Source of the DNA: a virus | Taxonomy: Duplodnaviria > Heunggongvirae > Uroviricota > Caudoviricetes | Length of the DNA: 22,505 bases | Strand: one strand, 5' to 3' | IMG/VR virus record: IMGVR_UViG_2681813269_000007 | Part shown: piece by piece, positions 1,320 to 19,959 of the stretch | Layout of the letters: each line of letters starts with the position of its first letter | Numbering within the stretch: the first letter of the stretch is position 1 | Program-made: the position numbers and the translations under genes | The notes under the pieces: generated by a model | What the model was told of the DNA's origin: nothing | The model's input: the letters and a program-made list of their open reading frames with translations, nothing else | Databases searched by the model: none

Positions 1320-1901
1320 GTGAACATGGATTTTAGAATGACTGAACAACCACGGACCATAAAAATTTATAATCTGCTGGCCGGAACTAATGAATTTATT
1401 GGTGAAGGTGACGCATATATTCCGCCTCATACAGGCCTGCCAGCAAACAGTACCGATATTGCACCGCCAGATATTCCGGCTGGCTTCGTGGCTGTTTTCA
1501 ACAGTGATGAGGCATCGTGGCATCTCGTTGAAGACCATCGGGGAAAAACCGTCTATGACGTGGCTTCCGGCGACGCGTTATTTATTTCTGAACTTGGCCC
1601 ATTACCGGAAAATGTCACCTGGTTATCCCCGGAAGGGGAGTTTCAGAAGTGGAACGGCACAGCCTGGGTGAAGGATACGGAAGCAGAAAAACTGTTCCGG
1701 ATCCGGGAGGCGGAAGAAACAAAAAACAACCTGATGCAGGTAGCCAGTGAGCATATTGCGCCGCTTCAGGATGCTGCAGATCTGGAAATTGCAACGGAGG
1801 AAGAAAACTCGTTGCTGGAAGCCTGGAAGAAGTATCGGGTGTTGCTGAACCGTGTTGATACATCACTATCTCCAGATATCGAGTGGCCAAGTCAACCATA
1901 A
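1320..1901 (+). CDS. tfa: Tail fibre assembly protein (Tfa family)
   Basis: 193-aa ORF with AGAGGTGA RBS. C-terminus ...[22 protein letters not shown] is the conserved Tfa / P2 gpG-type signature. Sits directly downstream of the tail fibre region. Confidence 0.85.
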
Positions 1902-1933: not shown

Positions 1934-2899
1934 TTAATTATCAGTAGATTGTTCCTCTAGTAACAACTCAATTCTGCTTAGTATTTCTTTAGATATTTTG
2001 CGGCTATCAATTTTTATAGTTACAAAATTACCTTTATATCTAGCCGTGATCCCTTCCCCATATTTTTTCTCGTCTTTTGTTTTTTCCTCGTCGCCAACCA
2101 GAACAGAGTCAGATAATATTTGTATAATCCGTGAAGCTTCTAAATCCTCGCCGTTTTTTTTAATTGCCAGAAGATGATGAGCAGCATTGCTCATGGCAGC
2201 CATGTTTTTTTTGTAAACCTTAAACAAAGAATCTCCAGCACGAGCTGACAGTTCTCCTGGATGATTGAAGATAGCTAATATATCTTTTGGTAGACCAGCT
2301 GTATTAATACAGCGAGTGATAATATTTCTATCTATATTTTCAGCCTCGGCTAATGCTTTAACGTTACCATCAAAGTCATTTAGCTTGCGTAAGTATCTCT
2401 TTCCTCTTTCGTATGCACTAATAGGCCTATAATCGTTACCAATTTGGGATAACCAATGCATCTGTTCATCGTCGAGATCACCAATTAAGACGCGATAGTC
2501 ACATCCTGTTAATATCGCTGCTTTTCTTCTACGTGAGCCGTCAGCGACTTCAACGATTCCAGATACTTTTCTGGCGAAAGCTGGATTTTGTTGTCCAGAC
2601 GTTAGAAAAGATGGGATTAAATCGGCTAGAGAGGATTCATTTAATAAATCTTGATCGCGTTCATTACCTAGCCATACCATTGTTGCCATTTCAACTTTAT
2701 CTGCGGGAATTGTCTCTAACTTAAAGTTAACATTACGTCCGCATACTGGCAAAGTTATGCTGTTACCGGTTAATGAACTCAGTTGACGTTTTAAATCACC
2801 AACCATAGGTGATACGGGCTGATGTTCAGGGGCATGATGATTATTACTCATAATGCGATTAATATCTGGAGCATTTTTTAGAAGAGAGCGCTGTTTCAT
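1934..2899 (-). CDS. sopB: Partition protein SopB (ParB family, centromere-binding)
   Basis: 321-aa ORF colinear with F-plasmid SopB as I recall it (ITLPVCGR, WxGNERDQ, DLIPSF, PAFxRxVSG, IADGSRRRKAA, DYRVLxGxLDDEQM, GNDYRPxSAYERG, CINTAxLPK, HPGELSAR). Start overlaps the sopA stop. Confidence 0.9.
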   Translation of the reverse strand: MKQRSLLKNAPDINRIMSNNHHAPEHQPVSPMVGDLKRQLSSLTGNSITLPVCGRNVNFKLETIPADKVEMATMVWLGNERDQDLLNESSLADLIPSFLTSGQQNPAFARKVSGIVEVADGSRRRKAAILTGCDYRVLIGDLDDEQMHWLSQIGNDYRPISAYERGKRYLRKLNDFDGNVKALAEAENIDRNIITRCINTAGLPKDILAIFNHPGELSARAGDSLFKVYKKNMAAMSNAAHHLLAIKKNGEDLEASRIIQILSDSVLVGDEEKTKDEKKYGEGITARYKGNFVTIKIDSRKISKEILSRIELLLEEQSTDN

Positions 2900-4065
2900 T
2901 ATTCGTTCTCCCAGCGAGGTTTTATTAGATCATCAAAAATTTCTCGGCAAACAGGGTCCCATATAGAAACAGCATTTCTCCATGCATTCAATGTTGAACG
3001 TTGGTTTGCTGCTTGTTCAAATACTGTTCTCATTTTTATCTGGCCTTTACCTACTTCATCGGTAACGCGTACAACCTGACGTAATACCATTGATCCCCAT
3101 GTATTTCTTATTTGTTCTTCCATCCATCGTGATTGATTCCCTGTAGTGAGACTATATTTAGTCAGAAGTAAGCGAACGGTTGGCTCAAATCCACCTAGGT
3201 CAACGCTTTCCAATAGATCGAGAAGCATTGTGAAAAACTGTAGAACAGAAGCGTAATCAAATAATTCTGCAGGTGTAGCAACAACAATAACGTCAGCGGC
3301 ACAAACAACGTTAATGGTTCCTGTACCGAGGTTCGGAGCACTATCTATAACGATAACATCGTAGTTATCCCAAACTGATTCAATAGCTGCGCGCAGCATA
3401 AGGTGTGGAGGATGAGGCAATTTACCCTGAGCATGATATTGCATGAGATCTGTTTCTATACGATGTAAAGCTAGGCAGCTAGGGATAATGTCTAGCCCAG
3501 GCCAACATGTTGGCTTTATAGCATATTCAGCGTTATCGCGTTCTCCTAAGTAAAATGGCAGTAAAGTATCCTCGGCATGGATATGTAAATCAGGAACATA
3601 ACCGTGATACATAGAGGCCGTGCCTTGAGGATCGTTACCTTCAACCAAAAGAACACGATGACCTTGTAATGCTAACCATTGAGCTTGATGTACCGCAGAC
3701 GATGTTTTATAAACGCCGCCTTTGTGTGACATAACGGCAAGCGCAACAGGGTTTTTATCTTGTGGTCGTTGGTTTGGGTTGCCAAAAACTGCTCGCATAC
3801 TGTTGATTTGATCTATGGTATAACCAGCACGACGTTCAATTCTTCCTCTCATTTCAAAGTCAGGTGCAGGTAAACGCCCGCTCTTCTCAGCATCTCTAAT
3901 TGCTTGAGGAGTTACACCAATTAAATCTGCTACTTCAGTTATACCCCATCGGCGGGTGATACGCCGAGCTTCAGGACTATCATCACCGAATTGAGCGATA
4001 GCAATTGCTTTGGTCATTTCTTGACCTCTCGTAACACAATCTTGCAATAACTTTTTCAAAGACAT
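2899..4065 (-). CDS. sopA: Partition ATPase SopA (ParA family, type Ia with N-terminal HTH extension)
   Basis: 388-aa ORF with GGAGATGA RBS. Deviant Walker A KGGVYKTS, a long N-terminal extension, and the same length as F SopA. Transcribed divergently from telN. Confidence 0.9.
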   Translation of the reverse strand: MSLKKLLQDCVTRGQEMTKAIAIAQFGDDSPEARRITRRWGITEVADLIGVTPQAIRDAEKSGRLPAPDFEMRGRIERRAGYTIDQINSMRAVFGNPNQRPQDKNPVALAVMSHKGGVYKTSSAVHQAQWLALQGHRVLLVEGNDPQGTASMYHGYVPDLHIHAEDTLLPFYLGERDNAEYAIKPTCWPGLDIIPSCLALHRIETDLMQYHAQGKLPHPPHLMLRAAIESVWDNYDVIVIDSAPNLGTGTINVVCAADVIVVATPAELFDYASVLQFFTMLLDLLESVDLGGFEPTVRLLLTKYSLTTGNQSRWMEEQIRNTWGSMVLRQVVRVTDEVGKGQIKMRTVFEQAANQRSTLNAWRNAVSIWDPVCREIFDDLIKPRWENE

Positions 4066-4712: not shown

Positions 4713-6626
4713 ATGAGCAAAGTAAAAATCGGTGAATTAATAAACTCACTTGTTAGCGATGTTGAGTCAATAGATAACTCTGACCGTCCTCAAGGGGAGA
4801 AAACAAAAAAAATAAAGGCTGTTGCATTAAAATTTAAAAATGCATTATTTAATGACAAGCGAAAGTTTAGGGGGAAAGGATTAGAAAAAAGAATTACAGC
4901 CAACACATTCAATGCCTATATGAGCAGGGCCAGAAAACGGTTTGATGATAAACTTCATCATAGCTTTGAAAAAAATATACATCGCCTATCTGAAAAGTAT
5001 CCTTTATATAATGAGGAGCTATTGTCATGGCTTTCTCTACCTGCTGCCGATATTCGCCAGAGAATGTCAGCTTTACAGGCAAAATTAAAATTAATTCTCC
5101 CTCTATCAGAAGATTTATCTAATATCAGAATTGGCGATAACAAAAGTCATAATAAGTTATTGAAATTATCAAATAAATATAAAGAGTGGCAATTCGCCAT
5201 TTCTGATTTAACTAGCGATAACTGGAAAGATAAGCGCGATTATTTATATAAATTACTACAGCAAGGATCTGCCTTACTTGAGGAGTTGAATCAGCTAAAA
5301 GTTAACCATGAGATTCTCTATCATCTTCAACTAAGCCCTGCCGAACGTGCATCTATCCAGCAACGATGGGCGGACGTTCTGCACAATAAGAAACGTAACG
5401 TGGTGGTCATTGATTACCCTAAATATATGCAAGCTATTTACGATATTATAAATAGCCCTGCTACATTAAATAATCTAAACACTCGTTCAGGTATGGCTCC
5501 TTTGGCATTTGCACTTGCTGCATTGTCAGGAAGACGAATGATTGAGATTATGTATCAAGGTACATTTACTGTTTCTGGTAAGTATACCGTTGATTTTTTA
5601 GGCCAAGCTAAAAAAAGAACTTCTGATGATATAACCAGAAAAATATATACATTATGCGAAGCAAAAACATTTGTTTATTTAATAAATGTACTTCGCTCAT
5701 GCCCAGCAGCATCTGATTTTGATGATGTCGTTAAAGGTTATGGAGATAACGATACACGCTCTGAAAACGGACGTATTAATGCCATATTAGCAAAGGCTTT
5801 TAACCCGTGGGTTAAATCATTTTTCAAAGATGACCGCCGTGTTTATAAAGATAGTCGTGCTATTTATGCCCGTATTGCGTATGAAATGTTTTTCCGCGTA
5901 GATCCTCGTTGGAAAAACGTAGATGAAGATGTTTTCTTTATGGAAATTTTAGGCCATGACGATGAAAACACTCAATTACACTATAAGCAATTCAAGCTGG
6001 CCAACTTCTCAAAGACATGGAGGCCAAATACTGGAAACGAAAATACCAGGCTGGAAGCATTGCAGCAGCTTGATGACGAAATGCCTGGATTCGCCAGAGG
6101 AGATGCCGGGGTTCGTCTGCATAACACAGTTAAGCAGCTGGTAGAGCAGGACCCCTCTATAAAAATCACGAACAGCACTCTAAGAGCGTTCAAATTTAGC
6201 CCAACAATGATTAGTCGATACCTGGAATTTGCTGCTGATGCTCTGGGGCAATTTGTTGGCGAAAACGGACAATGGCAACTGAAAATAGATACTCCAGAAA
6301 TCGTTATGCCTGACGAAGAAGAACTGGAAGCAATACCTGAACTGGCGGATGAATTATCAGAGGATGACGATCTGGATGACGACGAAATTGAGATAGAGGA
6401 AGAGGAAGAGGAAGAGGAAGAGGAAGAGGAAGAGAGCGTAGAAGAACAGCAACCGCCTGCACCTTCTTCGCCTGTATCTAAGCCGGTATTTAAGCCGGTG
6501 AGAAATATTGGTGATGGCTCATACGTTGTTGAGTTTCATTATAATGGCCAGAATTATGCGTGGTCCGGCAGTGCAAACAGCCCCATGTCAGCAATGCAGT
6601 TAGCATGGCTGACATATTTCGGTTAA
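4713..6626 (+). CDS. telN: Protelomerase TelN (telomere resolvase, tyrosine-recombinase-like)
   Basis: 637-aa ORF with AGGAGAGG RBS. The N-terminus MSKVKIGELIN... and overall colinearity match N15 TelN (about 630 aa) as I recall it. An acidic C-terminal tract precedes the conserved tail. Confidence 0.92.
   Translation: MSKVKIGELINSLVSDVESIDNSDRPQGEKTKKIKAVALKFKNALFNDKRKFRGKGLEKRITANTFNAYMSRARKRFDDKLHHSFEKNIHRLSEKYPLYNEELLSWLSLPAADIRQRMSALQAKLKLILPLSEDLSNIRIGDNKSHNKLLKLSNKYKEWQFAISDLTSDNWKDKRDYLYKLLQQGSALLEELNQLKVNHEILYHLQLSPAERASIQQRWADVLHNKKRNVVVIDYPKYMQAIYDIINSPATLNNLNTRSGMAPLAFALAALSGRRMIEIMYQGTFTVSGKYTVDFLGQAKKRTSDDITRKIYTLCEAKTFVYLINVLRSCPAASDFDDVVKGYGDNDTRSENGRINAILAKAFNPWVKSFFKDDRRVYKDSRAIYARIAYEMFFRVDPRWKNVDEDVFFMEILGHDDENTQLHYKQFKLANFSKTWRPNTGNENTRLEALQQLDDEMPGFARGDAGVRLHNTVKQLVEQDPSIKITNSTLRAFKFSPTMISRYLEFAADALGQFVGENGQWQLKIDTPEIVMPDEEELEAIPELADELSEDDDLDDDEIEIEEEEEEEEEEEEESVEEQQPPAPSSPVSKPVFKPVRNIGDGSYVVEFHYNGQNYAWSGSANSPMSAMQLAWLTYFG
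6396..6431 (+). repeat. Perfect (GAGGAA)x6 in-frame hexanucleotide tandem repeat inside telN
   Basis: Six exact tandem GAGGAA units encode the poly-Glu run in the TelN C-terminal acidic linker. Confidence 0.9.
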
Positions 6627-6636
6627 AGCATACAGT

Positions 6637-6665
6637 AAAGGCACCGAATTAACGGTGCCTTGTTG
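6637..6665. terminator. Hairpin between convergent telN and the antirepressor gene (candidate bidirectional terminator)
   Basis: AAGGCACCG-aattaa-CGGTGCCTT, a 9-bp perfect stem, sits 11 nt after the telN stop and is followed by GTTGTGTG. Confidence 0.5.
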
Positions 6666-6797
6666 TGTGACCTACCTCGCCTGCCCCCTGCAAAGGGCAG
6701 AAGTAACGGAGGAAACGCGGCTGCAACCACAGACATCACCGCCCCGACTGCGAGGCTTCCCTTCTCTAAGAAGGGCATAAATTCGGGCTGGTCAACC

Positions 6798-7580
6798 CTA
6801 TTTATTGGTGATTTCTGCTGGCTTTAGCTGCGCGGATAACTGCTCAAGTTTTTGAACTGCCAGTTCAAAATGCGCGGGTAACGCCTTTTCCAGATCAGAG
6901 TTAATATCGGTGATGGGTAAATCACCACACGACATACTCCGCCTACCCCCACGAACAACATCACGCAACAACTCTCGTTCATACGTGCGCATGTTCCCCA
7001 ATGCCGACTCAGCAGCCGTCAAAATCCGGCGCAGTTCTGCCGTAATTGCTGGCAAATCATCAACCGTTATGGGGTTCGGGGATGGATTACGACACGCCCG
7101 ACGCAAAGCTAACCATACACCGCTAATCCAGGCATTTCGGTACTGAAAACTTTGTGCTATATCGTTAATCAGCCCTCGCAGATACTCTTTCTGCCTCCAG
7201 TTCAACGGCTCCGCTGCTCGCATTGGCTCAGGCTCGATGTAAACGTACTCTCCATTTTTGCGAATAGAGGGCAAGACTTCGTTCGTTACCCATTTGCGAA
7301 ACCGCCAAGCTGTTGTGCCTTGCTTCACCGCGTCACGGCAGCGGAGGATCAGGGTGTATAGACCTGACTCTGAAATAATATTTAGCTTTTGCTCTCCGCC
7401 AGGGGTGTAACTTAAAGTTACACCCTTTTCATCCTCATCCAGAGACATTAGCGCCTTCCGGGAATTAACGAGTCTTAAAGCATCACATACATCCTTAGCC
7501 ACAAACCACGGCTCACCGTTAATCATCACTACACGAACCTGATGCTCTTCCTGAAAGGAAAAGACTGCTAACGCGCTCAT
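6798..7580 (-). CDS. Phage antirepressor with Bro-N-like N-terminal domain
   Basis: 260-aa ORF. The N-terminus (FQEEHQVRVVMINGEPWFVAKDVCDALRL...) fits the Bro-N / KilA-N antirepressor fold. Start overlaps the stop of the upstream small ORF. Position matches the N15 anti-immunity locus. Confidence 0.7.
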   Translation of the reverse strand: MSALAVFSFQEEHQVRVVMINGEPWFVAKDVCDALRLVNSRKALMSLDEDEKGVTLSYTPGGEQKLNIISESGLYTLILRCRDAVKQGTTAWRFRKWVTNEVLPSIRKNGEYVYIEPEPMRAAEPLNWRQKEYLRGLINDIAQSFQYRNAWISGVWLALRRACRNPSPNPITVDDLPAITAELRRILTAAESALGNMRTYERELLRDVVRGGRRSMSCGDLPITDINSDLEKALPAHFELAVQKLEQLSAQLKPAEITNK

Positions 7581-7810
7581 TCAGCCTCCTTATCGCGCAG
7601 CAAGTGCGACGAGAGAGACGCAGAATATCCCTGTGCTTCATGCGTTAACTCACACGCAATCTGCAGAAGTTTTCCAGCCTCTGAGAGGTAAATCGACGCC
7701 TCACAACTGGAGACTGTCCGATGGGCTGATGATACGAGCGCATAGACCTGAGCCAGACGTTCATCCAACGATTCCAGCAGGCCAACAGTGTTCATTTTTA
7801 CCTGATTCAT
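7577..7810 (-). CDS. Small protein, first gene of the antirepressor operon (icd-like position)
   Basis: 77-aa ORF with GAGGTGG RBS 4-5 nt upstream, translationally coupled to the downstream antirepressor. The Icd-like assignment is by position only (P1-style c4-icd-ant order). Confidence 0.5.
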   Translation of the reverse strand: MNQVKMNTVGLLESLDERLAQVYALVSSAHRTVSSCEASIYLSEAGKLLQIACELTHEAQGYSASLSSHLLRDKEAE

Positions 7811-8137
7811 GCAGCCACCTCGCGCACCGGAATACGGGCAGACAATACCAGGACAAACCGGCTGGCGAACTGGCGACGAGCTTCCCGTTCAGATGACGCG
7901 ATAGTGGAAAGATGATGAATGTGGGACTTTTTGTCTGTGCGAACGACTGCCGCAAATTTGAATTTGAACATGGTATGCACTCCGTTTTATTGGTCGTGCT
8001 ACCTCCAGAGTTGCGAATCTCTTTATTGGTGGTAGCCCAGGCGGGGTTCGCAATACCGGTAAACGAAGAAACCGGCCCGACCGAAGTCAGCCCCACCTGA
8101 GCCACCATAATTCGGATATGCGCAGGTCTATACACAT

Positions 8138-8213
8138 AAAAAAACACGCTGGCGCGTGTTGTGCGCTTCGTTTTGCCAGGATTGCGAAGTCCCGACTGCG
8201 GGATTTACCGCAG
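8138..8213 (-). ncRNA. Candidate small regulatory RNA (c4/cA-like) upstream of the antirepressor operon
   Basis: On the minus strand: -35 TTGACG (8250-8245), -10 TAAAGT (8226-8221), then about 75 nt ending in an intrinsic terminator (ACACGC-GCCA-GCGTGT plus U7, 8159-8138). The predicted RNA has a 5' hairpin CUGCGG-UAAAUC-CCGCAG. No convincing ORF in the region. Confidence 0.3.
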
Positions 8214-8263
8214 CGAGGTGACTTTACCTCCAAAACGACGCACACGTCAATAATTTGCAAAGA

Positions 8264-8300
8264 CATTTTACCCCGTGACCAGTCACGGGGACAGGTGTTT
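8264..8300. terminator. Hairpin separating the lipoprotein cargo block from the anti-immunity promoter region
   Basis: CCCCGTGAC-ca-GTCACGGGG lies just after the lipoprotein stop (8352, minus strand) and is followed on the plus strand by ACAGGTGTTTTTAT. Confidence 0.4.
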
Positions 8301-8351: not shown

Positions 8352-9164
8352 TTATAAGAAAGCCTCACGCGAACGGAACACCCACTCTAGCTGTACTGGA
8401 TAAATTTCTCCCGTTTTAATATTTATTAGGCGCGCGGCTAATAACTCACCCATAAAAACCTGAGTTTTATGGCTCATATCTGACGGGTTAAAAATAGTAG
8501 GTGATGTTATATCAATATGATTACTGCTTAACCCATTTATCTTTGCTAAATATTCAATTCTAAGGTCTTTTACATTAACATCTTTTGGTATTTGTCCTTT
8601 TATATCAATATCTGCCCATATTGTTTCAGGGTTCCCTTCATTTATTTGTGTACTACCAAAGATAATTTCGGCACCTAAAGTATTTAACACTTCTACATCA
8701 GCAGATATTCCAAAAGCATTAGCACCAACATAGCTTCCATGCTTTGTTATTTCAGAGGAATCGACATGAAAACCATACCATCCAGACATATCTCGAGATG
8801 TTATCACGCTATCACTACCGCTATTCTCAACAAAATCACGGTTAAGATATGTTCCTGAGTATGTGATACTTCTAGGGATAGACAAACCTTGAGATGTTAA
8901 AACGTTGTTGTATGGCGCGTATGTTAATGAGTGAACGACATATCCACGCCATAAACCATCATCTATCTTTGATGCAATAATTCTATTAAATTCCTTACCT
9001 GTGAGTATTTTGCTGCTAAAATCACCAACAGAGTTGATAGGTACTCTTTTTTCTTTTTCGAATTTATACTCAACGTCCGTTGATGCCTTATTATCATATT
9101 GATAAGTGCATCCAGATAATAACAAGATAGAGAGTAATAAAGCTGTTGTTTTTTTGTTACGCAT
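8352..9164 (-). CDS. Lipoprotein of unknown function (AT-rich cargo gene)
   Basis: 270-aa ORF with signal peptide and lipobox (MRNKKTTALLLSILLLSGC). The gene is markedly more AT-rich than its neighbours and has its own AT-rich upstream region. Confidence 0.8.
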   Translation of the reverse strand: MRNKKTTALLLSILLLSGCTYQYDNKASTDVEYKFEKEKRVPINSVGDFSSKILTGKEFNRIIASKIDDGLWRGYVVHSLTYAPYNNVLTSQGLSIPRSITYSGTYLNRDFVENSGSDSVITSRDMSGWYGFHVDSSEITKHGSYVGANAFGISADVEVLNTLGAEIIFGSTQINEGNPETIWADIDIKGQIPKDVNVKDLRIEYLAKINGLSSNHIDITSPTIFNPSDMSHKTQVFMGELLAARLINIKTGEIYPVQLEWVFRSREAFL

Positions 9165-9253
9165 AATATTAACTTAACCTATTTGATTAATAATATGTTA
9201 TTCCATTAAATAAAATATGCCGAGAACGGTTTAACTTGAACAGTCATCACTAT

Positions 9254-9661
9254 TCAATCAACTTTTTTAGCATCAGCCATACGTTTCAACCAGTAATCAA
9301 CAATCGGCTGCTCATCCACAGAATGTTTACCAGGTATAACTCGCCAGCTATCTTGCGAAAATCTGCCGTACTTACGCGGGAATAGGCCTTTCTTTATCTC
9401 CCGCCATGTACTAGGAAAACCATCCACAAAAGTACCAATTAACAGGAGAGGGACAAAAATCAGAGCTACAAACCATCGTGCAAGAAAGTGTTCAACAACA
9501 ACATTTTCACCGTTGTAGTAATACGCATACGCATCCAATATGCGAATTTTCCTTACCTTAAAAATAGCCTTATGCTGAGAACGACTTAACTTGATACGAA
9601 TGTATCCCTTATCCAAAGGGGATTCGTATTTGTATGATTGAACAGCCATTTTTAACCCCAC
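9254..9661 (-). CDS. Small membrane protein of unknown function
   Basis: 135-aa ORF with GGGG-containing RBS and one clear hydrophobic helix (FLARWFVALIFVPLLLIGTFV). Overlaps the upstream ORF by 10 nt. Confidence 0.6.
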   Translation of the reverse strand: MGLKMAVQSYKYESPLDKGYIRIKLSRSQHKAIFKVRKIRILDAYAYYYNGENVVVEHFLARWFVALIFVPLLLIGTFVDGFPSTWREIKKGLFPRKYGRFSQDSWRVIPGKHSVDEQPIVDYWLKRMADAKKVD

Positions 9662-9978
9662 TCACCATCAGCAAACAAAGCGTTATACTCTGACAATGGT
9701 AGACGGTTGCCCTCGATGTAGAGATTCAGTTCATACTTCGTCTCCGGGTTTTCCTTGTCGGCTCGTTCCCAACGCTCAGCAGCCTCACGCGCCAATAATT
9801 CCACTGCTTTCAGATAATCCTCCGTACGGAACCAGCCAAAGATAAGGCCACGATCTGTTACAGCCCAGGCAACCTTTTTTTCTTCCTCCTGGATAGCCTT
9901 AATGCGTCGATCGCATTCATCCCGGCAAAACTGCAGCTGACGGTAATCAAGTTTGTCCAAAAATGCAGTAGTAGACAT
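9652..9978 (-). CDS. Hypothetical protein (first gene of the three-gene cargo block)
   Basis: 108-aa ORF with GGGGAG RBS 7 nt upstream of the ATG. No recognisable motifs. Confidence 0.6.
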   Translation of the reverse strand: MSTTAFLDKLDYRQLQFCRDECDRRIKAIQEEEKKVAWAVTDRGLIFGWFRTEDYLKAVELLAREAAERWERADKENPETKYELNLYIEGNRLPLSEYNALFADGEWG

Positions 9979-10166
9979 ATTTTTACTCCCCGTTCACCGA
10001 AAAATCACGATAGAAACGTTTCCACATACGATAAGTCTGCGCGAGTTGTTCACCACGAAACATCGCCTTCCTGGCCTTCATGTTTTCCTTGTGAGACTTT
10101 CGATCTATGAACCAAAACCATTGCTGGAACACACAAAGCAAGAGACACAAAGATAATATCCACTGA

Positions 10167-13100
10167 TTACCCATAGAAAGCGCCCTGCTCTTCGTAGCTG
10201 CATGGGCTATTCCCGGTAATGTATTCACGTAACCGCCGCAGTTCATTGCTGGATAAGTGATCCATGAACTCTGTGAGGTACAGAGATGCAAACGTCATAG
10301 CTATGCTGGCTGATGACCATGATGACATAGTGGCCAGCTCCTCACCGGAAAGCGCACTCATCGCCCAGGACTCAGGTACAACCACTGGCAACACAGCCAA
10401 AGCCTCAGAAATTACTGAATGAGGGGCGTTTTGAACCTGCTCGTTTGTGGATCGCGTTTTATCATCCATATATATATTGAGATCCAAATCGCGATCCATT
10501 TCGATGGCGGTCTTCTCGGCTTTACGCGTTTTCAGGGTTAGGCCATCTTTCTGACGCTGAGCAAGAATATCCAGCATAAATGCCGCTGATTCAGGCTCAA
10601 CAAAACGCAAGGTTGGACGCTTATCGCCGTCTCTGCCGCGACGTTTACCTGTTTTAAGGCCAAGAGAGTCGCAAATGTTTTTAAACAACGCTTCCGGCAC
10701 TTTAGGCTTCCCTTTTGGCGTCATAAAACCACCAATGTGCAGAACGTTATTCAACAGGTCACGGCGTTCGGCTGTCATGAGGTTATCTCGAGCAAATTTG
10801 AGACGCTCCTGAGTCGCCTCGCCGGTCATAGTCTCAGGGTTGATACCGCAGTCGATAAAGTACTGCCGGAGAGTTGCTGATTTAAGCGCATAGAAACCGC
10901 GCGCCCCGACTTCAACAGTAGGAGTAGCTTTTACCTTGTGATCGATTATTCCAGGGAATTTAGTTTTAAAGACATCATCAGCCTGCTCGCGAGTCATCGC
11001 GGTCACTACAAAATATTGCCACTGTCCCGCCTGACGGTATGCGTAGGTAAAATTGATGGCTGCTTCTTCCCGGTCGTAACGACGAGCTGTTACCTCATCT
11101 AAAAGCATTGTTTCATAGCGGCGAACTTTGTCTCGAGCACCATCGAAATAGAATTTCAGCGTGCCTTCTTCAACCGGTAGTTTCAGTTCGTTTTCAATAT
11201 CCCAGCGGACAAGTTTTGCCTGTTCTTCAAGCGTCAGCGCGCGTTTTTTTAGCAGTTCTTCACGCTCTGATTCTTGTGGAGTTTCTGTATTGAGATGCAG
11301 ATCCAGTGTCTGTTCCCACACAATATCCCGCGCTTCTTTACGCAGCTCTTTACCGATATCATTCGCAGCATAATCGGTGGCCAGCGGCGATACCTTATAA
11401 CCGTCGCTGTGCATGATGCAGATCATGTTGCTGGCGTAGTCGTTACGCGCAGTCGCTTCAATAGCGGCTGCTTTAATTTTCATCCTGGTAAAGTCGGTAT
11501 TGGCCACCCCCATTGATATACGGTCGCCATCGAAAACGACATCCGTCAGTTCACCGTTCATACCTGCGGTAGCAAGCAATGCCTGGGCGAATGCTCGTTC
11601 TATTTTTTGCGGGTCAGTTTCACGTTTTGCACGAGCTTTATCAAAGCCGATAATAAATTCTTTTGCTGTACGGTCGCGGCGTAGCATTTGCACTGCGTCG
11701 CTGGGTACAACTTCACCACAGAACATGCCGAAATGACGGTCAAAATGTTTTTGCTCAATCGACACGCCGGATGAAATAGACGGGCTATAAATCAGGCCGT
11801 CGTATTTTTTGACCATCTTTTTCGGTTGATTGGTAAATGCTTCAACTTCTGGCTCTGGTTTGTTTTTCTGGTTTACACACAGAAATTTCTTACCAGGAAA
11901 ATGCATTCTCAGGGTGGCTGTCACATCTTCTGCAAAGGTGGAGCTGTCGGTGGCCAACATGATTTTTTCGCCATCCGATACAGCTTTCACCACCTCGGTC
12001 ATGATGCGATCTTTTTCTGTATAAAAAACCCGGATTGGCTCACCTGTTTCGCGGTTGCGAACATCAACAGGTAATTCAATTACGTGGATCTGCAGCCATG
12101 CCGGTAAACCTAGTTCTTCACGGCGTTTCATAGCCAGTTCAGCCAGGTCAACCAGCAGATCGTTCGCATCAGCATCCACCATGATTGGGTGTTGTTCCGT
12201 TCTGGCCAGCGCGTCAATTAGCGTATTGAATACAGCCACCGGGTTTTCCATAGCCCGACCGGAAAGAACGGCACGTAGCCCTTGTGTGGCCTCGTCAAAG
12301 CCAAAATAGTCGTGCTGGCGCATCAACGGTTGCCAGCAGTTTTTAACAATCGAGTTTATGCAGATGGTCAGTTTACTGGCGTATGGAGCCATTTCCTGAT
12401 AGCCAGGGTCCTGATAGTGCAGGATATCGGCTTTTACACCTTTTCCTTCTGTCATCATTTCCCACAGGCCACCAATAAGGGAGACACGGTGAGCAACAGA
12501 GATACCACGTTCTGAGCTATGCATTAATGGTCGTAACAATCCTGTAGATTTGCCGGAACCCATACCAGCACGGACGATGACTATCCCTTGTAGTGATTGC
12601 ACGTACTTCAGGACATCATCGGTCATTACCGAAGTTTCAAAACGCTTATAGGTGATATGTTGAGGGCGTTTATTGGGATCAGTTATGCGTTCGCTGAAAG
12701 AGCGCGGAGCCTGGGCAATACGGCACTTTTTATTCAGGCGACGGGCAATGTGGTCTTTTACCGTAGCGCGATAGATATTTTCCAGTCCCATTTCACGCAG
12801 AACGATGCAGAACATGTTAAATAAATCTGACGGACTGTTAGGAACCGGACAGGTTAGCATGCCTATATCCACCGCTCTCAGCAGCTCTTTGGCAAAAGTA
12901 CGACGGTTATCCCGCTTAATTGTCTTCAGGCGGTTGAGCGTCAGAGATAGCAAATCAGTACCGGTTTTCAGGCGGTTTGCTGTTGTAAATAGTTGACGTG
13001 CGGTTTCACGAAGTCCACGTAGTTTGTGCAGGTCGTTGAAGTCACTGCACTCCATTTGCGGATCGTCTTCAAAAGTTGGATAGACGCAGCGGACATCGTT

Positions 13101-14162
13101 GAATTTCGATAAGATTTCATAGCCAGTCCGCAGGCCGGTATTCCCTTTTCCTTCTGTGGCAGATTTCCGGTCATTATCCAGTGCGCAGGTGATTTTTGCC
13201 GCCGGGTACATGTTTACCAGTTGTTCCACAACATGAACCATGTTGTTAGCGGATACAGCGACAACCACAGCGTCAAAGCGTTTATATTTTTTCGTGGCAA
13301 GCCAGATGGATGCACCAGTAGCAAAACCTTCTGTAACAGCGATGTTTTGCGCCCCTTTCAGCTCACCGATAACAAAGCAGGCACCGACGAAATCGCCGCT
13401 GGTTACTGCGCTGGTCTGGTATTTCCCACCTTGTTTGTCGATTCGCTGCCAACCCACAATACGACCATCGTAACGACCGTCCAGGTGAGCCAGAGGGATA
13501 GCCATATATGTGGTTGGCCCCCGGCTCCATTTCGCACTGTCGTGACTGGTCACGCGACGCACATCACATGAACTAAAAACGTCACGAATACCTTTTTTAA
13601 TCGCATATGGCCATGAGCCGTCTTCAGCCGGAGCATGTTCCCACGCGCTGTGGAATGCCAGCCATCCCAGCAAACGTTCATGGTCCATTTGGTTGTTTTT
13701 CAGGTCATTAATTCGTTTTTGTTCTTCACGGCGACGACGTGCTTCGGCCTGACGTTCTATTCTTTCCCGTTCTTCTTCCGGTTGTGCGACCACGGTCGCA
13801 TTATTCCGTTGTTGCTCACGGCGATATTCAGAAAACAGGAAGGAGAAACCGCTCCATGAGCCAGCATCGCTGCCTTTATGGACGAAGTTAATGAACGGGT
13901 AATCAATCCCTTTGCTGTGTTCCAGCCGGGAGTAAATTTCTACGCGTCCTTTCAGGCTCTTTTCGAGAGCTTCTGGAGATGTTTTATTGTATGAAGAGTA
14001 ACGCTCAACTCCCCCGCGAGGGTTGAGTTGGATGTTGTCGGAACAGGCAGGCCAGTTGATACCAGCCATCTGTGCCAGCTCGGTTAGTTCATCCCGTGCT
14101 GCTTCAATTAGCGAGAACGGATCGCTGCCAAAGCGATCCGCATAGAAATCGTTTAATGTCAT
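10167..14162 (-). CDS. repA: Replication protein RepA (multidomain primase-helicase)
   Basis: 1331-aa ORF, close to the roughly 1324 aa I recall for N15 RepA. Walker A GMGSGKST in the central helicase region. Same orientation and position relative to cB as in N15. Confidence 0.92.
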   Translation of the reverse strand: MTLNDFYADRFGSDPFSLIEAARDELTELAQMAGINWPACSDNIQLNPRGGVERYSSYNKTSPEALEKSLKGRVEIYSRLEHSKGIDYPFINFVHKGSDAGSWSGFSFLFSEYRREQQRNNATVVAQPEEERERIERQAEARRRREEQKRINDLKNNQMDHERLLGWLAFHSAWEHAPAEDGSWPYAIKKGIRDVFSSCDVRRVTSHDSAKWSRGPTTYMAIPLAHLDGRYDGRIVGWQRIDKQGGKYQTSAVTSGDFVGACFVIGELKGAQNIAVTEGFATGASIWLATKKYKRFDAVVVAVSANNMVHVVEQLVNMYPAAKITCALDNDRKSATEGKGNTGLRTGYEILSKFNDVRCVYPTFEDDPQMECSDFNDLHKLRGLRETARQLFTTANRLKTGTDLLSLTLNRLKTIKRDNRRTFAKELLRAVDIGMLTCPVPNSPSDLFNMFCIVLREMGLENIYRATVKDHIARRLNKKCRIAQAPRSFSERITDPNKRPQHITYKRFETSVMTDDVLKYVQSLQGIVIVRAGMGSGKSTGLLRPLMHSSERGISVAHRVSLIGGLWEMMTEGKGVKADILHYQDPGYQEMAPYASKLTICINSIVKNCWQPLMRQHDYFGFDEATQGLRAVLSGRAMENPVAVFNTLIDALARTEQHPIMVDADANDLLVDLAELAMKRREELGLPAWLQIHVIELPVDVRNRETGEPIRVFYTEKDRIMTEVVKAVSDGEKIMLATDSSTFAEDVTATLRMHFPGKKFLCVNQKNKPEPEVEAFTNQPKKMVKKYDGLIYSPSISSGVSIEQKHFDRHFGMFCGEVVPSDAVQMLRRDRTAKEFIIGFDKARAKRETDPQKIERAFAQALLATAGMNGELTDVVFDGDRISMGVANTDFTRMKIKAAAIEATARNDYASNMICIMHSDGYKVSPLATDYAANDIGKELRKEARDIVWEQTLDLHLNTETPQESEREELLKKRALTLEEQAKLVRWDIENELKLPVEEGTLKFYFDGARDKVRRYETMLLDEVTARRYDREEAAINFTYAYRQAGQWQYFVVTAMTREQADDVFKTKFPGIIDHKVKATPTVEVGARGFYALKSATLRQYFIDCGINPETMTGEATQERLKFARDNLMTAERRDLLNNVLHIGGFMTPKGKPKVPEALFKNICDSLGLKTGKRRGRDGDKRPTLRFVEPESAAFMLDILAQRQKDGLTLKTRKAEKTAIEMDRDLDLNIYMDDKTRSTNEQVQNAPHSVISEALAVLPVVVPESWAMSALSGEELATMSSWSSASIAMTFASLYLTEFMDHLSSNELRRLREYITGNSPCSYEEQGAFYG
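13783..13802. other. sopC-like centromere palindrome, copy 1 (inside repA coding sequence)
   Basis: TGTGCGACC-AC-GGTCGCATT. Positions 13785-13800 (TGCGACC-AC-GGTCGCA) are a perfect 7+2+7 inverted repeat with the same GACC-AC-GGTC core as the F sopC SopB-binding site. Confidence 0.6.
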
Positions 14163-14407: not shown

Positions 14408-15004
14408 TCATCTACCCTCAACCATGAATGATTTGATCGTTCCGACTATTTGGTGAACAAATTCAAGATCGCTTTTCCTGAAGATGGCTCGTTGTGAGTT
14501 TGTTCCATCCAGATAGTAATTTTCATCATCAAAACGGGCCAGGCGCTGGATAGTGATATTTCCTGCAGTATCACGAACCAGAACATCCTCGCCGGGGACC
14601 AGTTCCAGCGCAGAATCGACCAGGAGAAAATCGCCTGGCTGATAGTTTCCCTGCGTAAGATTGCTGATAGTTAACGCATACACAGTATTGCGCTGGCTGA
14701 TGAATGGCAGGAATCGCTCAGTATTTGGAACCTGTCCCGGCTTCCATTCTTCATCAGGCCCACTTTCAGTTGTGCCAATAATAGGAATGCGATCAGGGTC
14801 ATATTCTGTCCCATATAGCACCCAATGCACTGGCTTGCGTAAGCACTTAGCCAGGGCAATACCTATCTCCAGTGACGGCATTACGTCGCCACGTTCTAAG
14901 TTTTGGACGCCTGCTATAGAGATATCGACAGCCTCAGCAACTTCTCGCAACGTCAGCTTCATCTCTAAACGGCGTGCTTTCAGTCGTTCGCCTCGTGTTT
15001 TCAT
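14408..15004 (-). CDS. cB: Prophage repressor CB (CI-like, N-terminal HTH, C-terminal S24-like domain)
   Basis: 198-aa ORF with an XRE-type HTH (LTLREVAEAVDISIAGVQNLERG) and a LexA/CI-like C-terminal fold (GDFLLVD ... ITIQRL). Divergent from cro across an operator region. Confidence 0.85.
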   Translation of the reverse strand: MKTRGERLKARRLEMKLTLREVAEAVDISIAGVQNLERGDVMPSLEIGIALAKCLRKPVHWVLYGTEYDPDRIPIIGTTESGPDEEWKPGQVPNTERFLPFISQRNTVYALTISNLTQGNYQPGDFLLVDSALELVPGEDVLVRDTAGNITIQRLARFDDENYYLDGTNSQRAIFRKSDLEFVHQIVGTIKSFMVEGR

Positions 15005-15317: not shown

Positions 15318-16017
15318 GTATATACGCAGCTGCGTCTCTACGGCATTGGCTGATGTTCATTATCGCCAGCGTGGCATTCTGGAGGTCCAGCTTGAGCAGA
15401 TGCGTCTCGGTAGATCAGGACGGTTTAACAATAAACCAGTCCGGTCAATCAGTGTGGGGGATGATAACTCATACGAAGTGTCCGTTCCCGCTGAGCCGGT
15501 TAGATTCCACCAAGGGAAAACATTTAAACAATCATCAATATTGCTCACTGATATTGATTTTCAGAGCGCCAGCTGGCGCAGGGCTATTGGTCAGTTGAAT
15601 AACGAGGAATCAGCCTGGCTTTATTATTGCTACGGATGCAAGCCTGACTACAACAATGATGTGATTGTTTGTCAGTGGTTATGGCTTGATTTTCTGGTTG
15701 CTCATTCTGGGGGCGGCTTTAAAAAAATGAAGGCCTCCACGAAAAAAGCCATGCGGAAATTGATTTATTACGCGGCACAGCAGGTTAAATCAGAACTTAC
15801 GTGTGCTGAGGCAGTTGATGAGAGAGAACAGGACAGGCATCTGAGTTTTCTACTGAATATATCTATTGATAGCTGGAGACAAGATTATAAAGAACGCTGG
15901 CTTTTAATTAAGTCGCGATGTCTGAGCTTAAATCGAACCGCATTATTAAATGCGGCGGAGAAGCGCAGTGAAATCATCAAACGCCATCGGGCAGGAAGTG
16001 CCATTCTGCCTTTGTAA
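15307..16017 (+). CDS. Hypothetical protein in the position of a Q-like late antiterminator
   Basis: 236-aa ORF with GTG start and AAGGAG RBS, overlapping the cro 3' end. Function inferred from gene order only. Confidence 0.35.
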   Translation: MELEYIRSCVSTALADVHYRQRGILEVQLEQMRLGRSGRFNNKPVRSISVGDDNSYEVSVPAEPVRFHQGKTFKQSSILLTDIDFQSASWRRAIGQLNNEESAWLYYCYGCKPDYNNDVIVCQWLWLDFLVAHSGGGFKKMKASTKKAMRKLIYYAAQQVKSELTCAEAVDEREQDRHLSFLLNISIDSWRQDYKERWLLIKSRCLSLNRTALLNAAEKRSEIIKRHRAGSAILPL

Positions 16018-18998: not shown

Positions 18999-19018
18999 CC
19001 CTGTAATTTTATACAGTA
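18999..19018. promoter_or_regulatory. LexA (SOS) box
   Basis: CCCTGTAATTTTATACAGTA is a canonical CTGT-N8-ACAG with AT-rich spacer, 23 bp upstream of the ATG at 19041. It is the only such match I found in the window. Confidence 0.6.
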
Positions 19019-19040: not shown

Positions 19041-19259
19041 ATGGTATTAGATTCAATGACTGAAGCATCTGTATCAACTCTTGAAGAACTCGGATCAAAC
19101 CTAAAAGACATCGACGCCGTTTTGGATCTGGTTAGCGTTGCTCTGGCTTCTCCCGAAGCTAGCTTGCATCTTGGCGAGATTTCACGGCTTGTTAGTATGT
19201 CGCGGGAGATTGCTCAGAATTGCCAACAAGCGATTGCTGTGGAGTGTTTACATCATTGA
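19041..19259 (+). CDS. Small acidic protein under the LexA box (candidate SOS-inducible antirepressor)
   Basis: 72-aa ORF, acidic and predicted helical, immediately downstream of the LexA box and convergent with the toxin-antitoxin pair. Confidence 0.55.
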   Translation: MVLDSMTEASVSTLEELGSNLKDIDAVLDLVSVALASPEASLHLGEISRLVSMSREIAQNCQQAIAVECLHH

Positions 19260-19302: not shown

Positions 19303-19590
19303 TCAATAGACGGCATTAATATTAATTGTTGCGCCACATGCTTGGGCATATTTTGATAAAGTTTTCATGCTTGCCCCTAAAGGATTGCTTTCCAGGCGGC
19401 TGATGGCGGACGGGCGCAATCCCATTCGTTCTGCCAGAGCTGACTTCGTTAAACCTGCTCTTTCCCTCATTTCGTATAACATTTCGACCATCTCCAGTTC
19501 TTTATCGGCCTCTTCATATCCTTTGATAGCTTCTGGAGTGTTGAGTAGTTTTTCCTTTACTTCGTTAAACGGGATGCCTTTTGCTTTCAT
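19303..19590 (-). CDS. HTH (XRE-family) antitoxin, HigA-like
   Basis: 95-aa ORF with HTH LTKSALAERMGLRPSAISRLES. Start codon overlaps the toxin stop (ATGA). Confidence 0.8.
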   Translation of the reverse strand: MKAKGIPFNEVKEKLLNTPEAIKGYEEADKELEMVEMLYEMRERAGLTKSALAERMGLRPSAISRLESNPLGASMKTLSKYAQACGATININAVY

Positions 19591-19901
19591 CAGTTCATCT
19601 CCTTCAGGCGAGTTCTGGCGATTTCTATAGCCTTTACTGGTGTTTTCTGTGTCTTTTTTACAAATGCATGCAATAGATAAATTTCGTTACCAGTCGCGTA
19701 GGCGTATAGCGTTCTTGCGATGTTTTTATCCCCTACTCTTAGTTCAAAGAGTCCTCCGCCTATTACACGGCTATGGGGCATCTTAAGTTTGTTTCCCTCT
19801 TTCTCCAGTCGTTCAATTAGCCTGGTCATGCGACCTCGCAGATCGTCTGGTAGTTCAAGCAGTTCATCCAGTGCTGCAGGGTGGGTTATCACGTTAAACA
19901 T
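19590..19901 (-). CDS. RelE/ParE-superfamily toxin (HigB / Gp49-like)
   Basis: 103 aa from ATG 19901, chosen over the ORF-track start at 19946 because AGGAGG lies 8 nt upstream. C-terminal ...LYAYATGNEIYLLHAFVKKTQKTP... matches the Gp49/HigB-type fold as I know it. Toxin-first order. Confidence 0.75.
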   Translation of the reverse strand: MFNVITHPAALDELLELPDDLRGRMTRLIERLEKEGNKLKMPHSRVIGGGLFELRVGDKNIARTLYAYATGNEIYLLHAFVKKTQKTPVKAIEIARTRLKEMN

Positions 19902-19959
19902 ATTATAGCCTCCTAATGCGCAAAATACACCAAAACGAGAAAACAAAGCAAATATAAAA

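Follow-up and report, generated by a model that had tools for sequence, protein, structure and literature searches.

Ravin, Svarchevsky and Dehò reportedly described in 1999 the immA locus of phage N15, in which icd, antA and antB are placed under the control of the CA RNA. Reviews give immA the same icd/antA/antB composition (PMC4488713, PMC10612081), and a further article, with reference to Ravin 1999, puts the N15 antirepressor gene under negative control by the small RNA CA (PMC10732415). The immI locus of P1 is annotated in the order a1 b1 - c4 - a2 b2 - icd - ant. In the isrK-orf45-anrP segment of Gifsy-1, an isrK-family leader with a partly read-through terminator precedes a processed RNA and the small orf45, which is translationally coupled to the gene of the antirepressor AnrP (PMC4825925). 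The immunity region of P4 (seqA - CI RNA - seqC) controls replication genes by premature termination, and no antirepressor is under its control.

The window analyzed here, a stretch of 22,505 nucleotides from the IMG/VR record IMGVR_UViG_2681813269_000007, covers the right arm of a telomere phage of the N15 type, a linear plasmid prophage. Ravinvirus phages are its closest DNA relatives, and TelN, SopAB, RepA and a CB-like repressor are encoded around the locus of interest, which sits between telN and repA and faces telN, in a layout identical to that of N15 and phiKO2. The original prediction placed a two-gene anti-immunity operon at 6798-7810, made of the minus-strand open reading frames (ORFs) of 77 and 260 amino acids. 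The junction between them is as predicted: tcat at 7577-7580 on the plus strand reads ATGA on the coding strand, so that the shorter ORF ends on a stop codon overlapping the ATG of the longer one. These limits are nevertheless too narrow and one gene was missed. The full unit occupies 6798-8250 on the minus strand and comprises, 5' to 3', a promoter, an isrK/seqA-like leader with its terminator, a C4-type RNA, the targets a2 and b2, and three genes, icd, antA and antB (Table 1). We identify it, with a probability of about 0.88, as an N15-type secondary-immunity (immA) operon with leader, C4-type RNA and icd-antA-antB, of which the predicted pair is the distal part.

Table 1 Features of the operon and of related elements in the window
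Feature	Position	Strand	Evidence or remark
Putative sigma-70-type promoter (Pa-like)	8221-8250	-	TTGACG, 18-nt spacer, TAAAGT; promoter scan
isrK/seqA-like leader RNA	8139-8214	-	Rfam RF01394, 52.8 bits, barely clearing the gathering score of 50
Leader hairpin 1	8196-8214	-	compensatory changes at 4/7 pairs
Target a1	8181-8188	-	in the loop of leader hairpin 2
Target b1	8166-8173	-	in the leader
Intrinsic terminator	8138-8159	-	ACACGCGCCAGCGTGT + T7; terminator scan
C4-type antisense RNA gene	8025-8112	-	Rfam RF01695, 82.3 bits (gathering score 45), full length 1-87
C4-type RNA, b' loop	8061-8068	-	CUUCGUUU
C4-type RNA, a' tail	8047-8054	-	AUUGCGAA
Downstream C4 target region	7980-8017	-	read from sequence
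Target a2	8011-8017	-	UUCGCAA
Target b2	7980-7987	-	AAACGGAG; includes icd Shine-Dalgarno GGAG, 8 nt before ATG
icd (Icd-like cell-division inhibitor, 54 aa)	7807-7971	-	NCBIfam NF033153 phage_ICD_like, E 1.3e-18
antA Shine-Dalgarno	7815-7821	-	GAGGTGG
antA orthologue (77 aa, predicted helical hairpin)	7577-7810	-	63% identity to N15 gp31 (BLASTP)
antB Shine-Dalgarno	7585-7591	-	AAGGAGG
antB orthologue (260 aa)	6798-7580	-	74% identity to N15 gp30 (BLASTP)
Hairpin	6640-6659	both	GGCACCG-AATTAA-CGGTGCC, T-rich tails on both strands; read from sequence
telN	4713-6626	+	convergent with the operon
RepA-like ORF (1331 aa)	10167-14162	-	
LexA box	19001-19016	+	CTGTAATTTTATACAG, perfect CTGT-N8-ACAG; read from sequence
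antC-like ORF (72 aa)	19041-19259	+	outside the operon, downstream of the LexA box

The hairpin between antB and telN is likely a bidirectional terminator common to the operon and the convergent telN; the phiKO2 record has a 'putative bidirectional' terminator at the matching position, and our terminator scan did not flag the hairpin. Plus-strand ORFs overlapping the operon (e.g., 7633-7896 and 6910-7146) were rejected as genes, as was a 128-aa ORF at 7761-8147, which is the RNA region translated.

The resemblance to N15 immA extends from the position between telN and repA, the orientation and the gene order to both 4-nt overlaps, and the orthologues of gp32, gp31 and gp30 are 95%, 63% and 74% identical, the first value applying to the C-terminal 57 aa of gp32 (BLASTP). 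The notes of the phiKO2 record name the N15 icd, AntA and AntB counterparts in the same order as in the window. This orthology supports the predicted antirepressor (anti-immunity) nature of the operon. The N15 record differs in that gene 32 is a 96-aa ORF running over the RNA gene.

The presence of icd alters the assignment of the proteins. Variable sites in this gene number 16/14/48 by codon position, and its stop codon overlaps the antA start in a second ATGA, at 7807-7810. P1 Icd also matches NF033153 (E 3.4e-14); BLASTP gives no alignment between P1 Icd and window Icd, and the two are joined only via the phage_ICD_like profile. Since a 54-aa Icd homologue lies upstream, the role of Icd analogue that had been given to the 77-aa protein falls away, and this protein is instead the orthologue of AntA. 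It matches PHROG 10889 'anti-repressor', its phiKO2 counterpart gp28 is annotated as 'similar to antirepressor encoded by N15 AntA', and its AF2 model consists of two helices (pLDDT 85.7). The assignment of the N15 protein that binds CB rests on these phiKO2 annotation notes and on reviews. In each of the 47 related loci read, an ORF of 74-77 aa starts at the stop codon of icd. A full HMMER search of 1.84 billion representatives returned only 9 clusters of relatives; the AntA family is thus narrow, and the search gave no functional lead. A word-indexed protein search gave near-identical E. coli copies only, and a pattern scan of genome contigs found no relatives. Against solved structures, the AntA profile gave only weak matches to unrelated proteins (best E 0.019), and Foldseek with the AntA model retrieved generic helical hairpins (best E 0.27). 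AntA bears the label 'hypothetical protein', 'putative gp31' or Gp28 in the plasmid and phage records covered.

The 260-aa protein, AntB, is a Bro-N protein, as predicted: Pfam PF02498 matches residues 14-104 over profile positions 1-96 of 96 (E 9.9e-22), while its helical C-terminal half has no family match. Its phiKO2 counterpart, gp27, is annotated as 'similar to auxiliary anti-repressor N15 AntB'. The identical protein is found on 430 contigs. About a quarter of related loci have a truncated antB or another ORF in its place: PhiR46_1 and nine IMG/VR loci retain only 54-55 aa, one locus has 129 aa, and TnpB-like ORFs replace the gene in three IMG/VR loci. The AntB sequence matches no solved structure, and the top Foldseek match of its model is the N-terminal domain of CpGV Orf22 (weak, E 0.08). 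Since the C-terminal half is poorly modeled (pLDDT about 50-60), this fold search tells nothing beyond a weak Bro-N-like match. Ant antirepressor is a common annotation for Bro-N proteins (PHROGs 130, 245 and others, with E values as low as 2.7e-50), and this one is easily mistaken for the main antirepressor.

Of the 47 IMG/VR relatives read, 46 keep ATGA at the icd/antA junction and the remaining one (L050) has GTGA; in 42, the antA stop lies in a 4-nt overlap with an antB-type ORF, which in some of them is truncated. Both antA and antB, with their 4-nt overlap, also recur in N15 and phiKO2; judged by this sequence conservation, the pair does not consist of chance ORFs. These overlaps suggest the translational coupling that had been predicted, although antA and antB are each preceded by a good Shine-Dalgarno sequence, so that coupling may be partial.

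Upstream of the genes lie the promoter, the leader and the controlling C4-type antisense RNA, all three absent from the original prediction. The promoter -35 TTGACG and the -10 pattern T-A..G-T are invariant in 29 related leaders, and the Rfam isrK match starts at 8214, 7 nt downstream of the promoter. The leader carries sites a1 and b1, complementary to the a' and b' sites of the C4-type RNA, and the intrinsic terminator, nearly invariant among relatives, directly follows b1. The C4-type RNA is the counterpart of N15 CA RNA and P1 c4, and its stems are 98-100% paired over 29 sequences, with compensatory changes. The pair of isrK-like leader and C4-type RNA is also found by Rfam in N15, phiKO2 and YDC107_1; in N15, the annotated terminator falls within the isrK match. 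The C4 RNA gene is sometimes translated in records and labeled 'ash family protein' or 'secondary immunity repressor'. Target b2 lies over the icd Shine-Dalgarno sequence in the window and in most b-types.

Pairing between the antisense RNA and its targets is supported by covariation. The a'-a2 helix can form completely (100% paired) in all 29 distinct related leaders, five of its seven pairs showing compensatory changes, and the whole structure is 97.8% paired, compared with 34-43% after a shift of the partners by 1-3 columns. In a1, the reverse complement of the a' core occurs in 181/181 same-type pairs and in 0/660 different-type pairs; the corresponding test on the a2 core gives 30/630 matches across types. 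Duplex energies of cognate and non-cognate C4/target pairs overlap once the conserved flanks are included, and these flanks also blur longest-run scores, so core-motif and column-pair counts were used instead. Both sites vary: the 33 distinct leaders fall into at least five a-types and several b-types, in 18 combinations. Relative to N15, a' is UUGCGAA in the window and UUGAGAA in N15, and b' is CUUCGUUU in the window and CUUCUUGU in N15. Because both antisense specificity sites differ, the window phage and N15 should be heteroimmune at immA.

The predicted likeness to P1 icd-ant holds for the arrangement and not for the antirepressor. The immI loci of P1 and P7 share with the window the C4 RNA family, a1/b1 upstream and a2/b2 downstream of it, b2 at the icd ribosome-binding site, and an Icd-family first gene with a 4-nt overlap with the next gene (icd/ant1 in P1). 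P1 Ant1/2 has an ANT/KilAC domain and is produced from two in-frame starts, whereas the window has two unrelated proteins, the 77-aa helical hairpin and the Bro-N protein. P1 Ant1 contains PF03374 and no Bro-N domain; BLASTP of P1 Ant1 gives E 0.18 against AntB and E 0.72 against AntA. The Bro-N protein is not a homologue of P1 Ant1/2, and the operon lacks an antirepressor of that type. The P1 promoter also carries a C1 operator. The operon has the Gifsy-1-type layout as well, with an isrK RNA and a Rho-independent terminator upstream of a putatively coupled small ORF and a predicted antirepressor gene. In Gifsy-1, by contrast, translation is activated in trans by the short leader RNA, and the output feeds the antiterminator AntQ (PMC4825925). 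The P4 immunity RNA belongs to the same RNA clan, and an Icd-like ORF (50% identity, E 7e-7) lies directly downstream of it.

The original prediction also held that a separate LexA-controlled small ORF at 19041 might provide a second antirepressor input, and this ORF does appear antirepressor-like. With the unannotated N15 ORF that lies between genes 47 and 48 it shares 56% identity; a LexA box accompanies that N15 ORF too, and we take its position to be that of antC. According to Mardanov and Ravin (2007), N15 AntC is reportedly a LexA-controlled antirepressor. Direct BLASTP between AntA and the antC-like ORF is not significant (E 0.089); hhalign gives a probability of 94% (E 1.4e-7), with a score of 40 against at most 15 for shuffled controls. 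This homology is visible only through the PY54 'AntA' and profile comparison, by which the antC-like ORF is a remote paralogue of AntA.

Based on these data, we propose the following mechanism. Transcripts that pass the leader terminator would carry the C4-like RNA, which, by analogy with N15 CA RNA and P1 c4, would be excised as a small, stable RNA. Through loop b' and tail a', this RNA could then pair with b2 and a2 on transcripts of the same kind. As b2 covers the icd Shine-Dalgarno sequence, icd would remain untranslated in the paired state, and translation of antA and antB, whose start codons overlap the preceding stops, would fall with it; an mRNA left untranslated would also be likely to terminate early. 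Pairing of the C4-like RNA with a1/b1 may promote termination in the leader, in the manner of P4 and N15, or alternatively the short terminated leader may act as a decoy for C4, in the manner of IsrK. Once C4 control is overcome, Icd would block cell division and AntA, assisted by AntB, would inactivate the CB repressor. The SOS input would come separately, from the LexA-repressed AntA paralogue, the antC-like ORF.

The balance between the two levels of control may differ from this scheme. If the C4-like RNA acted mainly on transcription, at the leader terminator or a Rho site, the block of the icd ribosome-binding site would be minor and the ATGA overlaps incidental. The near-invariant intrinsic terminator directly after b1 is consistent with such a mode, as is the Icd-like ORF downstream of P4 cI. 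N15 CA RNA, too, reportedly works by termination. P4 CI RNA works through seqA/seqC and termination (PMC4825925). Yet b2 covers the icd Shine-Dalgarno sequence in the window and most b-types, and in the P1 record the purpose given for a2/b2 is 'repression of icd ant translation'. We consider a mainly transcriptional action somewhat unlikely, the two modes not being mutually exclusive.

The division of labor among the proteins leaves room for two other readings. AntB might act mainly apart from CB, for example in DNA binding or on the repressors of co-resident prophages, with AntA alone acting on CB. Its function has not been elucidated according to reviews (PMC4488713, PMC10612081), natural relatives can dispense with it, its C-terminal half combines a low-confidence model with the lack of a family match, and Gifsy phages have trans-acting antirepressors (PMC3121763); but the phiKO2 note names N15 AntB an auxiliary antirepressor, the conserved 4-nt overlap ties antB-type ORFs, even some truncated ones, to antA, and direct evidence for another target is lacking, which makes a separate role improbable. 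The predicted unit of two genes, with the 77-aa protein in the role of P1 Icd, as a coupling or division-inhibitor ORF, and the Bro-N protein as the CB-binding antirepressor, is very unlikely. The frequent Ant annotation of Bro-N proteins in PHROGs and the coupling of the small upstream orf45 to AnrP in Gifsy-1 (PMC4825925) speak for it. Against it stand the true Icd homologue upstream, coupled likewise, the paralogy of AntA with the LexA-box ORF, the phiKO2 record with AntA as the antirepressor and the Bro-N protein as 'auxiliary', and the cutting or replacement of antB in relatives, in which the antA-type ORF is retained after icd in 47/47. The preferred reading keeps AntA as the main antirepressor. 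A more specific form of it, to which we give even odds, is that AntA and the AntC-like protein are paralogous two-helix antirepressors acting on the same CB surface, that AntB is a dispensable accessory, and that the a/b 'barcode' sets immA heteroimmunity groups.

The immA-type operon is already known, and this is an ordinary locus of little weight as a discovery; both antirepressor inputs having been described for N15, they add nothing new here. Its value is mainly one of annotation, the operon DNA being found in 87 plasmid records, with near-identical copies in dozens of sequenced linear plasmids of E. coli, E. albertii and Klebsiella. The covariation of the C4-type RNA with its targets provides a clean natural case of antisense specificity switching. 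The AntA/AntC-like convergence and the barcode may each already be contained in the work of Ravin (1999) or of Mardanov and Ravin (2007). If the convergence is true, two independent signals, RNA immunity and LexA, would meet on one surface of the CB repressor.

The region is immA, an anti-immunity operon already described in N15-like phages; its anatomy, its orthology and the covariation of its RNA pairing are shown here. The original prediction had described an anti-immunity operon in a phage that may have two antirepressor inputs, which stands, but it missed the first gene and the RNA regulator and misassigned the main antirepressor. The overlap it described between the stop of a 77-aa ORF and the ATG of a 260-aa Bro-N ORF is present on the minus strand (ATGA at 7577-7580, tcat on the plus strand), and the Bro-N domain of the 260-aa protein is complete (PF02498, E 9.9e-22). 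A two-gene extent is incomplete, since a second ATGA junction (7807-7810) joins the 77-aa ORF to a third ORF further upstream. This ORF, the window Icd, matches NCBIfam phage_ICD_like (E 1.3e-18) and shares 95% identity with the C-terminal part of N15 gp32; its likely start, the ATG at 7971, lies 8 nt past GGAG and gives 54 aa, the length of phiKO2 gp29. The 77-aa and Bro-N proteins are 63% and 74% identical to N15 gp31 and gp30, respectively, and phiKO2 RefSeq notes read, in the same order, similar to N15 icd, 'antirepressor ... AntA' and 'auxiliary anti-repressor ... AntB'. Reviews describe immA of N15 and phiKO2 as an icd-antA-antB operon in which the function of AntB has not been elucidated (PMC4488713, PMC10612081). 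Because of the N15 orthology, the phiKO2 notes and these reviews, we assign the 77-aa protein, previously taken for an Icd analogue, as AntA, and the Bro-N protein as an accessory rather than the main antirepressor.

AntA is modeled as a two-helix hairpin (pLDDT 85.7) and belongs to a very small family (9 clusters among 1.84 billion representatives); structure searches returned no solved or informative relatives. For the C-terminal half of AntB, no family match was found and the model is of low confidence only. Between antB and a hairpin (6640-6659) whose tails are T-rich on either strand lies a hydrophobic 51-aa ORF (6623-6778, minus strand) lacking a Shine-Dalgarno sequence, which is probably not a gene; YDC107_1 has a hypothetical protein annotated in this gap. 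The hairpin probably ends the immA unit and matches the bidirectional terminator annotated in phiKO2. Upstream of the unit, a perfect palindrome (8271-8290) probably insulates it.

Features of the immA unit and of its setting in the window
Feature	Position	Strand	Sequence, score or remark
SopA-/SopB-like genes	1934-4065		
antB (Bro-N ORF)	6798-7580	-	260 aa
antA (small ORF)	7577-7810	-	77 aa
b2, just before icd	7980-7987		AAACGGAG
a2, just before icd	8011-8017		UUCGCAA
C4 antisense RNA, full length	8025-8112	-	Rfam 82.3 bits (gathering score 45)
a', C4 single-stranded tail	8047-8054		AUUGCGAA
b', C4 hairpin-2 loop	8061-8068		CUUCGUUU
Intrinsic terminator, leader end	8138-8159	-	
isrK RNA	8139-8214	-	Rfam 52.8 bits (gathering score 50)
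b1, leader	8166-8173		AAACGAAG
a1, leader	8181-8188		UUCGCAAU
Sigma-70-like promoter, 5' of leader	8250-8221	-	TTGACG, 18 nt, TAAAGT
RepA-like ORF	10167-14162		1331 aa
HTH repressor, CB-like	14408-15004		
Perfect LexA box, 5' of ORF 19041-19259	19001-19016		CTGTAATTTTATACAG

Directly 5' of icd, the coding strand carries C4 and isrK RNAs, a pair that Rfam also places at the corresponding position in N15, phiKO2 and YDC107_1; phiKO2 additionally matches the 'c4-a1b1' target family. The promoter -35 hexamer is invariant among 29 relatives. The 255-nt leader-to-icd RNA folds much better than its shuffles (z = -5.07), and its predicted fold recovers the leader hairpins, the terminator and the C4 structure. 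Elsewhere, 209 phage records match the isrK-plus-C4 leader module, many of them Stx-converting phages; some matches overlap features annotated as antirepressor or Rha, and one record annotates both RNAs. A 128-aa ORF (7761-8147, minus strand) matches Pfam Phage_ASH (E 2.1e-12, residues 10-61). The matching stretch coincides exactly with the C4 RNA gene and the a2/b2 targets. Over the C4 region, certain plasmid records show an 'ash family protein', and ORFs in the N15, YDC107_1 and P4 records are called cA/cI or 'secondary immunity repressor'. This protein family model seems to have been derived by translating an RNA gene.

The b' and a' segments of C4 are complementary to two site pairs, a1/b1 in the leader and a2/b2 before icd, and the icd Shine-Dalgarno GGAG falls inside b2. 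Covariation of this pairing is observed in an alignment of 29 distinct related leaders: every cell of the a'-a2 helix is paired (100%), with compensatory two-sided changes at five of its seven pairs, one of which occurs as GC in 14, CG in 12 and UA in 3. The whole structure is 97.8% paired, versus 34-43% with partners slid by 1-3 columns, and none of 500 shuffles reached the observed covariation score. The a-core exists in five types. An exact reverse complement of the core is present in the a1 region for 181/181 same-type and 0/660 different-type comparisons, and in the a2 region for 181/181 and 30/630, respectively. The b loops change in step with b1 and b2, and a and b types occur in free combination, with 18 different combinations in the 33 distinct leaders. 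N15 differs from the window at both sites (a UUGAGAA versus UUGCGAA, b CUUCUUGU versus CUUCGUUU). A conserved GGUGGUAGC could pair with the C4 3' arm GCUACCACC (8028-8036), to which it is complementary, in an alternative hairpin presenting a2 in its loop. Position 8004 (within 7998-8006, minus strand) is A in the window (GGAGG) but U in all of the 32 other distinct leaders (GGUGG), which puts a mismatch in this candidate hairpin.

The experimentally annotated P1 record gives the order a1, b1, c4, a2, b2, icd, ant1 and labels a2/b2 'repression of icd ant translation'. The window has the same layout of targets, C4 and icd, and P1 icd and ant1 also overlap by 4 nt. The likeness to P1 immI holds for the RNA, the targets, icd and the overlap, but not for the antirepressor: P1 Ant1 carries an ANT/KilAC domain, and no similarity was found between it and the window AntA or AntB. 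Although it works in the manner of immI, the locus is of the N15 immA type.

The known N15/P1 scheme is the best-supported reading of the mechanism, in which RNA processing, translational block, coupling and protein activities are inferred. The operon's own leader would yield a C4-like RNA that pairs with a2/b2 and occludes the icd ribosome-binding site, and overlapping start and stop codons would transmit the block to antA and antB. This coupling may be partial, because antA (GAGGTGG, 7815-7821) and antB (AAGGAGG, 7585-7591) each have their own Shine-Dalgarno. Pairing at a1/b1 would either favour termination in the leader, the mode of N15 and P4, or let the short terminated leader titrate C4. 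Such titration has been shown for Gifsy-1 IsrK (PMC4825925). Upon failure of the block, Icd would halt division and AntA, with help from AntB, would inactivate the repressor CB.

Natural variation was read in 47 Icd-encoding IMG/VR loci. The icd stop and next start form ATGA in 46 (GTGA in L050), and the ORF opening there is 74-77 aa long in all 47. An antB-type ORF overlaps the antA stop by 4 nt in 42; antB is full length in about 32, shortened to 54-55 aa in nine (L005, L007, L010-L015, L049) and to 129 aa in L016. TnpB-like ORFs take its place in L048, L050 and L051, and no ORF was seen downstream of antA in L035 and L046. An antA-type ORF is kept in every locus with a truncated or replaced antB and in PhiR46_1, where an antB remnant of 54-55 aa (2150-2314) adjoins telN. 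This loss agrees with AntA as the antirepressor and the Bro-N protein as an accessory. Variable sites by codon position (icd 16/14/48, antA 54/39/71) fit coding sequences. The icd locus occurs twice on CP025712.1 (YDC107_1) and on the IMG/VR contigs of L006/L008, L020/L021, L030/L031, L033/L034 and L041/L043, the IMG/VR copies being oppositely oriented; the duplication might stem from assembly of hairpin-ended linear plasmids into inverted dimers.

As a whole, the window represents the right arm of a telomere phage of the N15-like kind. A 637-aa ORF (4713-6626, plus strand), which we take to be the TelN protelomerase, matches N15 gene 29 and the phiKO2 protelomerase in position. The closest phage records are Ravinvirus: YDC107_1 (90% DNA identity), PhiR46_1 and N15. 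The immA locus is present in 87 plasmid records, three of them at 99.9% identity and labelled 'Bro-N domain-containing protein', 'hypothetical protein' and 'host cell division inhibitor Icd-like protein'. Between immA and repA (8352-10291, minus strand) lie four ORFs without Pfam match, one encoding a 270-aa protein whose signal is of the lipoprotein type (…LLSGC); they are probably variable cargo. In Klebsiella telomere phages this slot is occupied by telocin/immunity cassettes (PMC12042878), and in PhiR46_1 by a 'Spackle' exclusion gene. Within the left-arm coding region, Rfam IS009 matches at full length (220 bits; 1669-1867, plus strand).

Two independent antirepressor inputs, immA and the LexA-box ORF at 19041, were rightly proposed and are already known for N15. 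ORF 19041-19259 shares 56% identity with an ORF left unannotated in N15, located between genes 47 and 48; that N15 ORF, NAR688 and MStein-2023a likewise have a LexA box. These features fit N15 AntC, the LexA-controlled antirepressor described in PMC3121763 and PMC4488713 after Mardanov and Ravin (2007). Directly downstream of and convergent with this ORF, a Gp49/HigB-like (PF05973) and HTH_3 gene pair (19303-19946, minus strand) occupies the place of N15 genes 48/49 and resembles a toxin-antitoxin pair. PY54 'antA' (15602-15865 of the related locus L003) adjoins a dinI-like gene in an AntC-like position, and a search of the 300 nt upstream revealed no CTG-N10-CAG box. Its product is about equally close to the window AntA (E 5e-9) and the AntC-like ORF (E 9e-10). 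Alignment of the AntA family profile with that of the AntC-like family gave 94% probability (E 1.4e-7) and a score of 40; the reversed alignment scored 9.9, and none of 30 column shuffles exceeded 15.1. Given this alignment with its controls, the dual PY54 match and the predicted AntA hairpin, the two proteins are probably paralogues under different controls, a relationship that goes beyond the sources we read.
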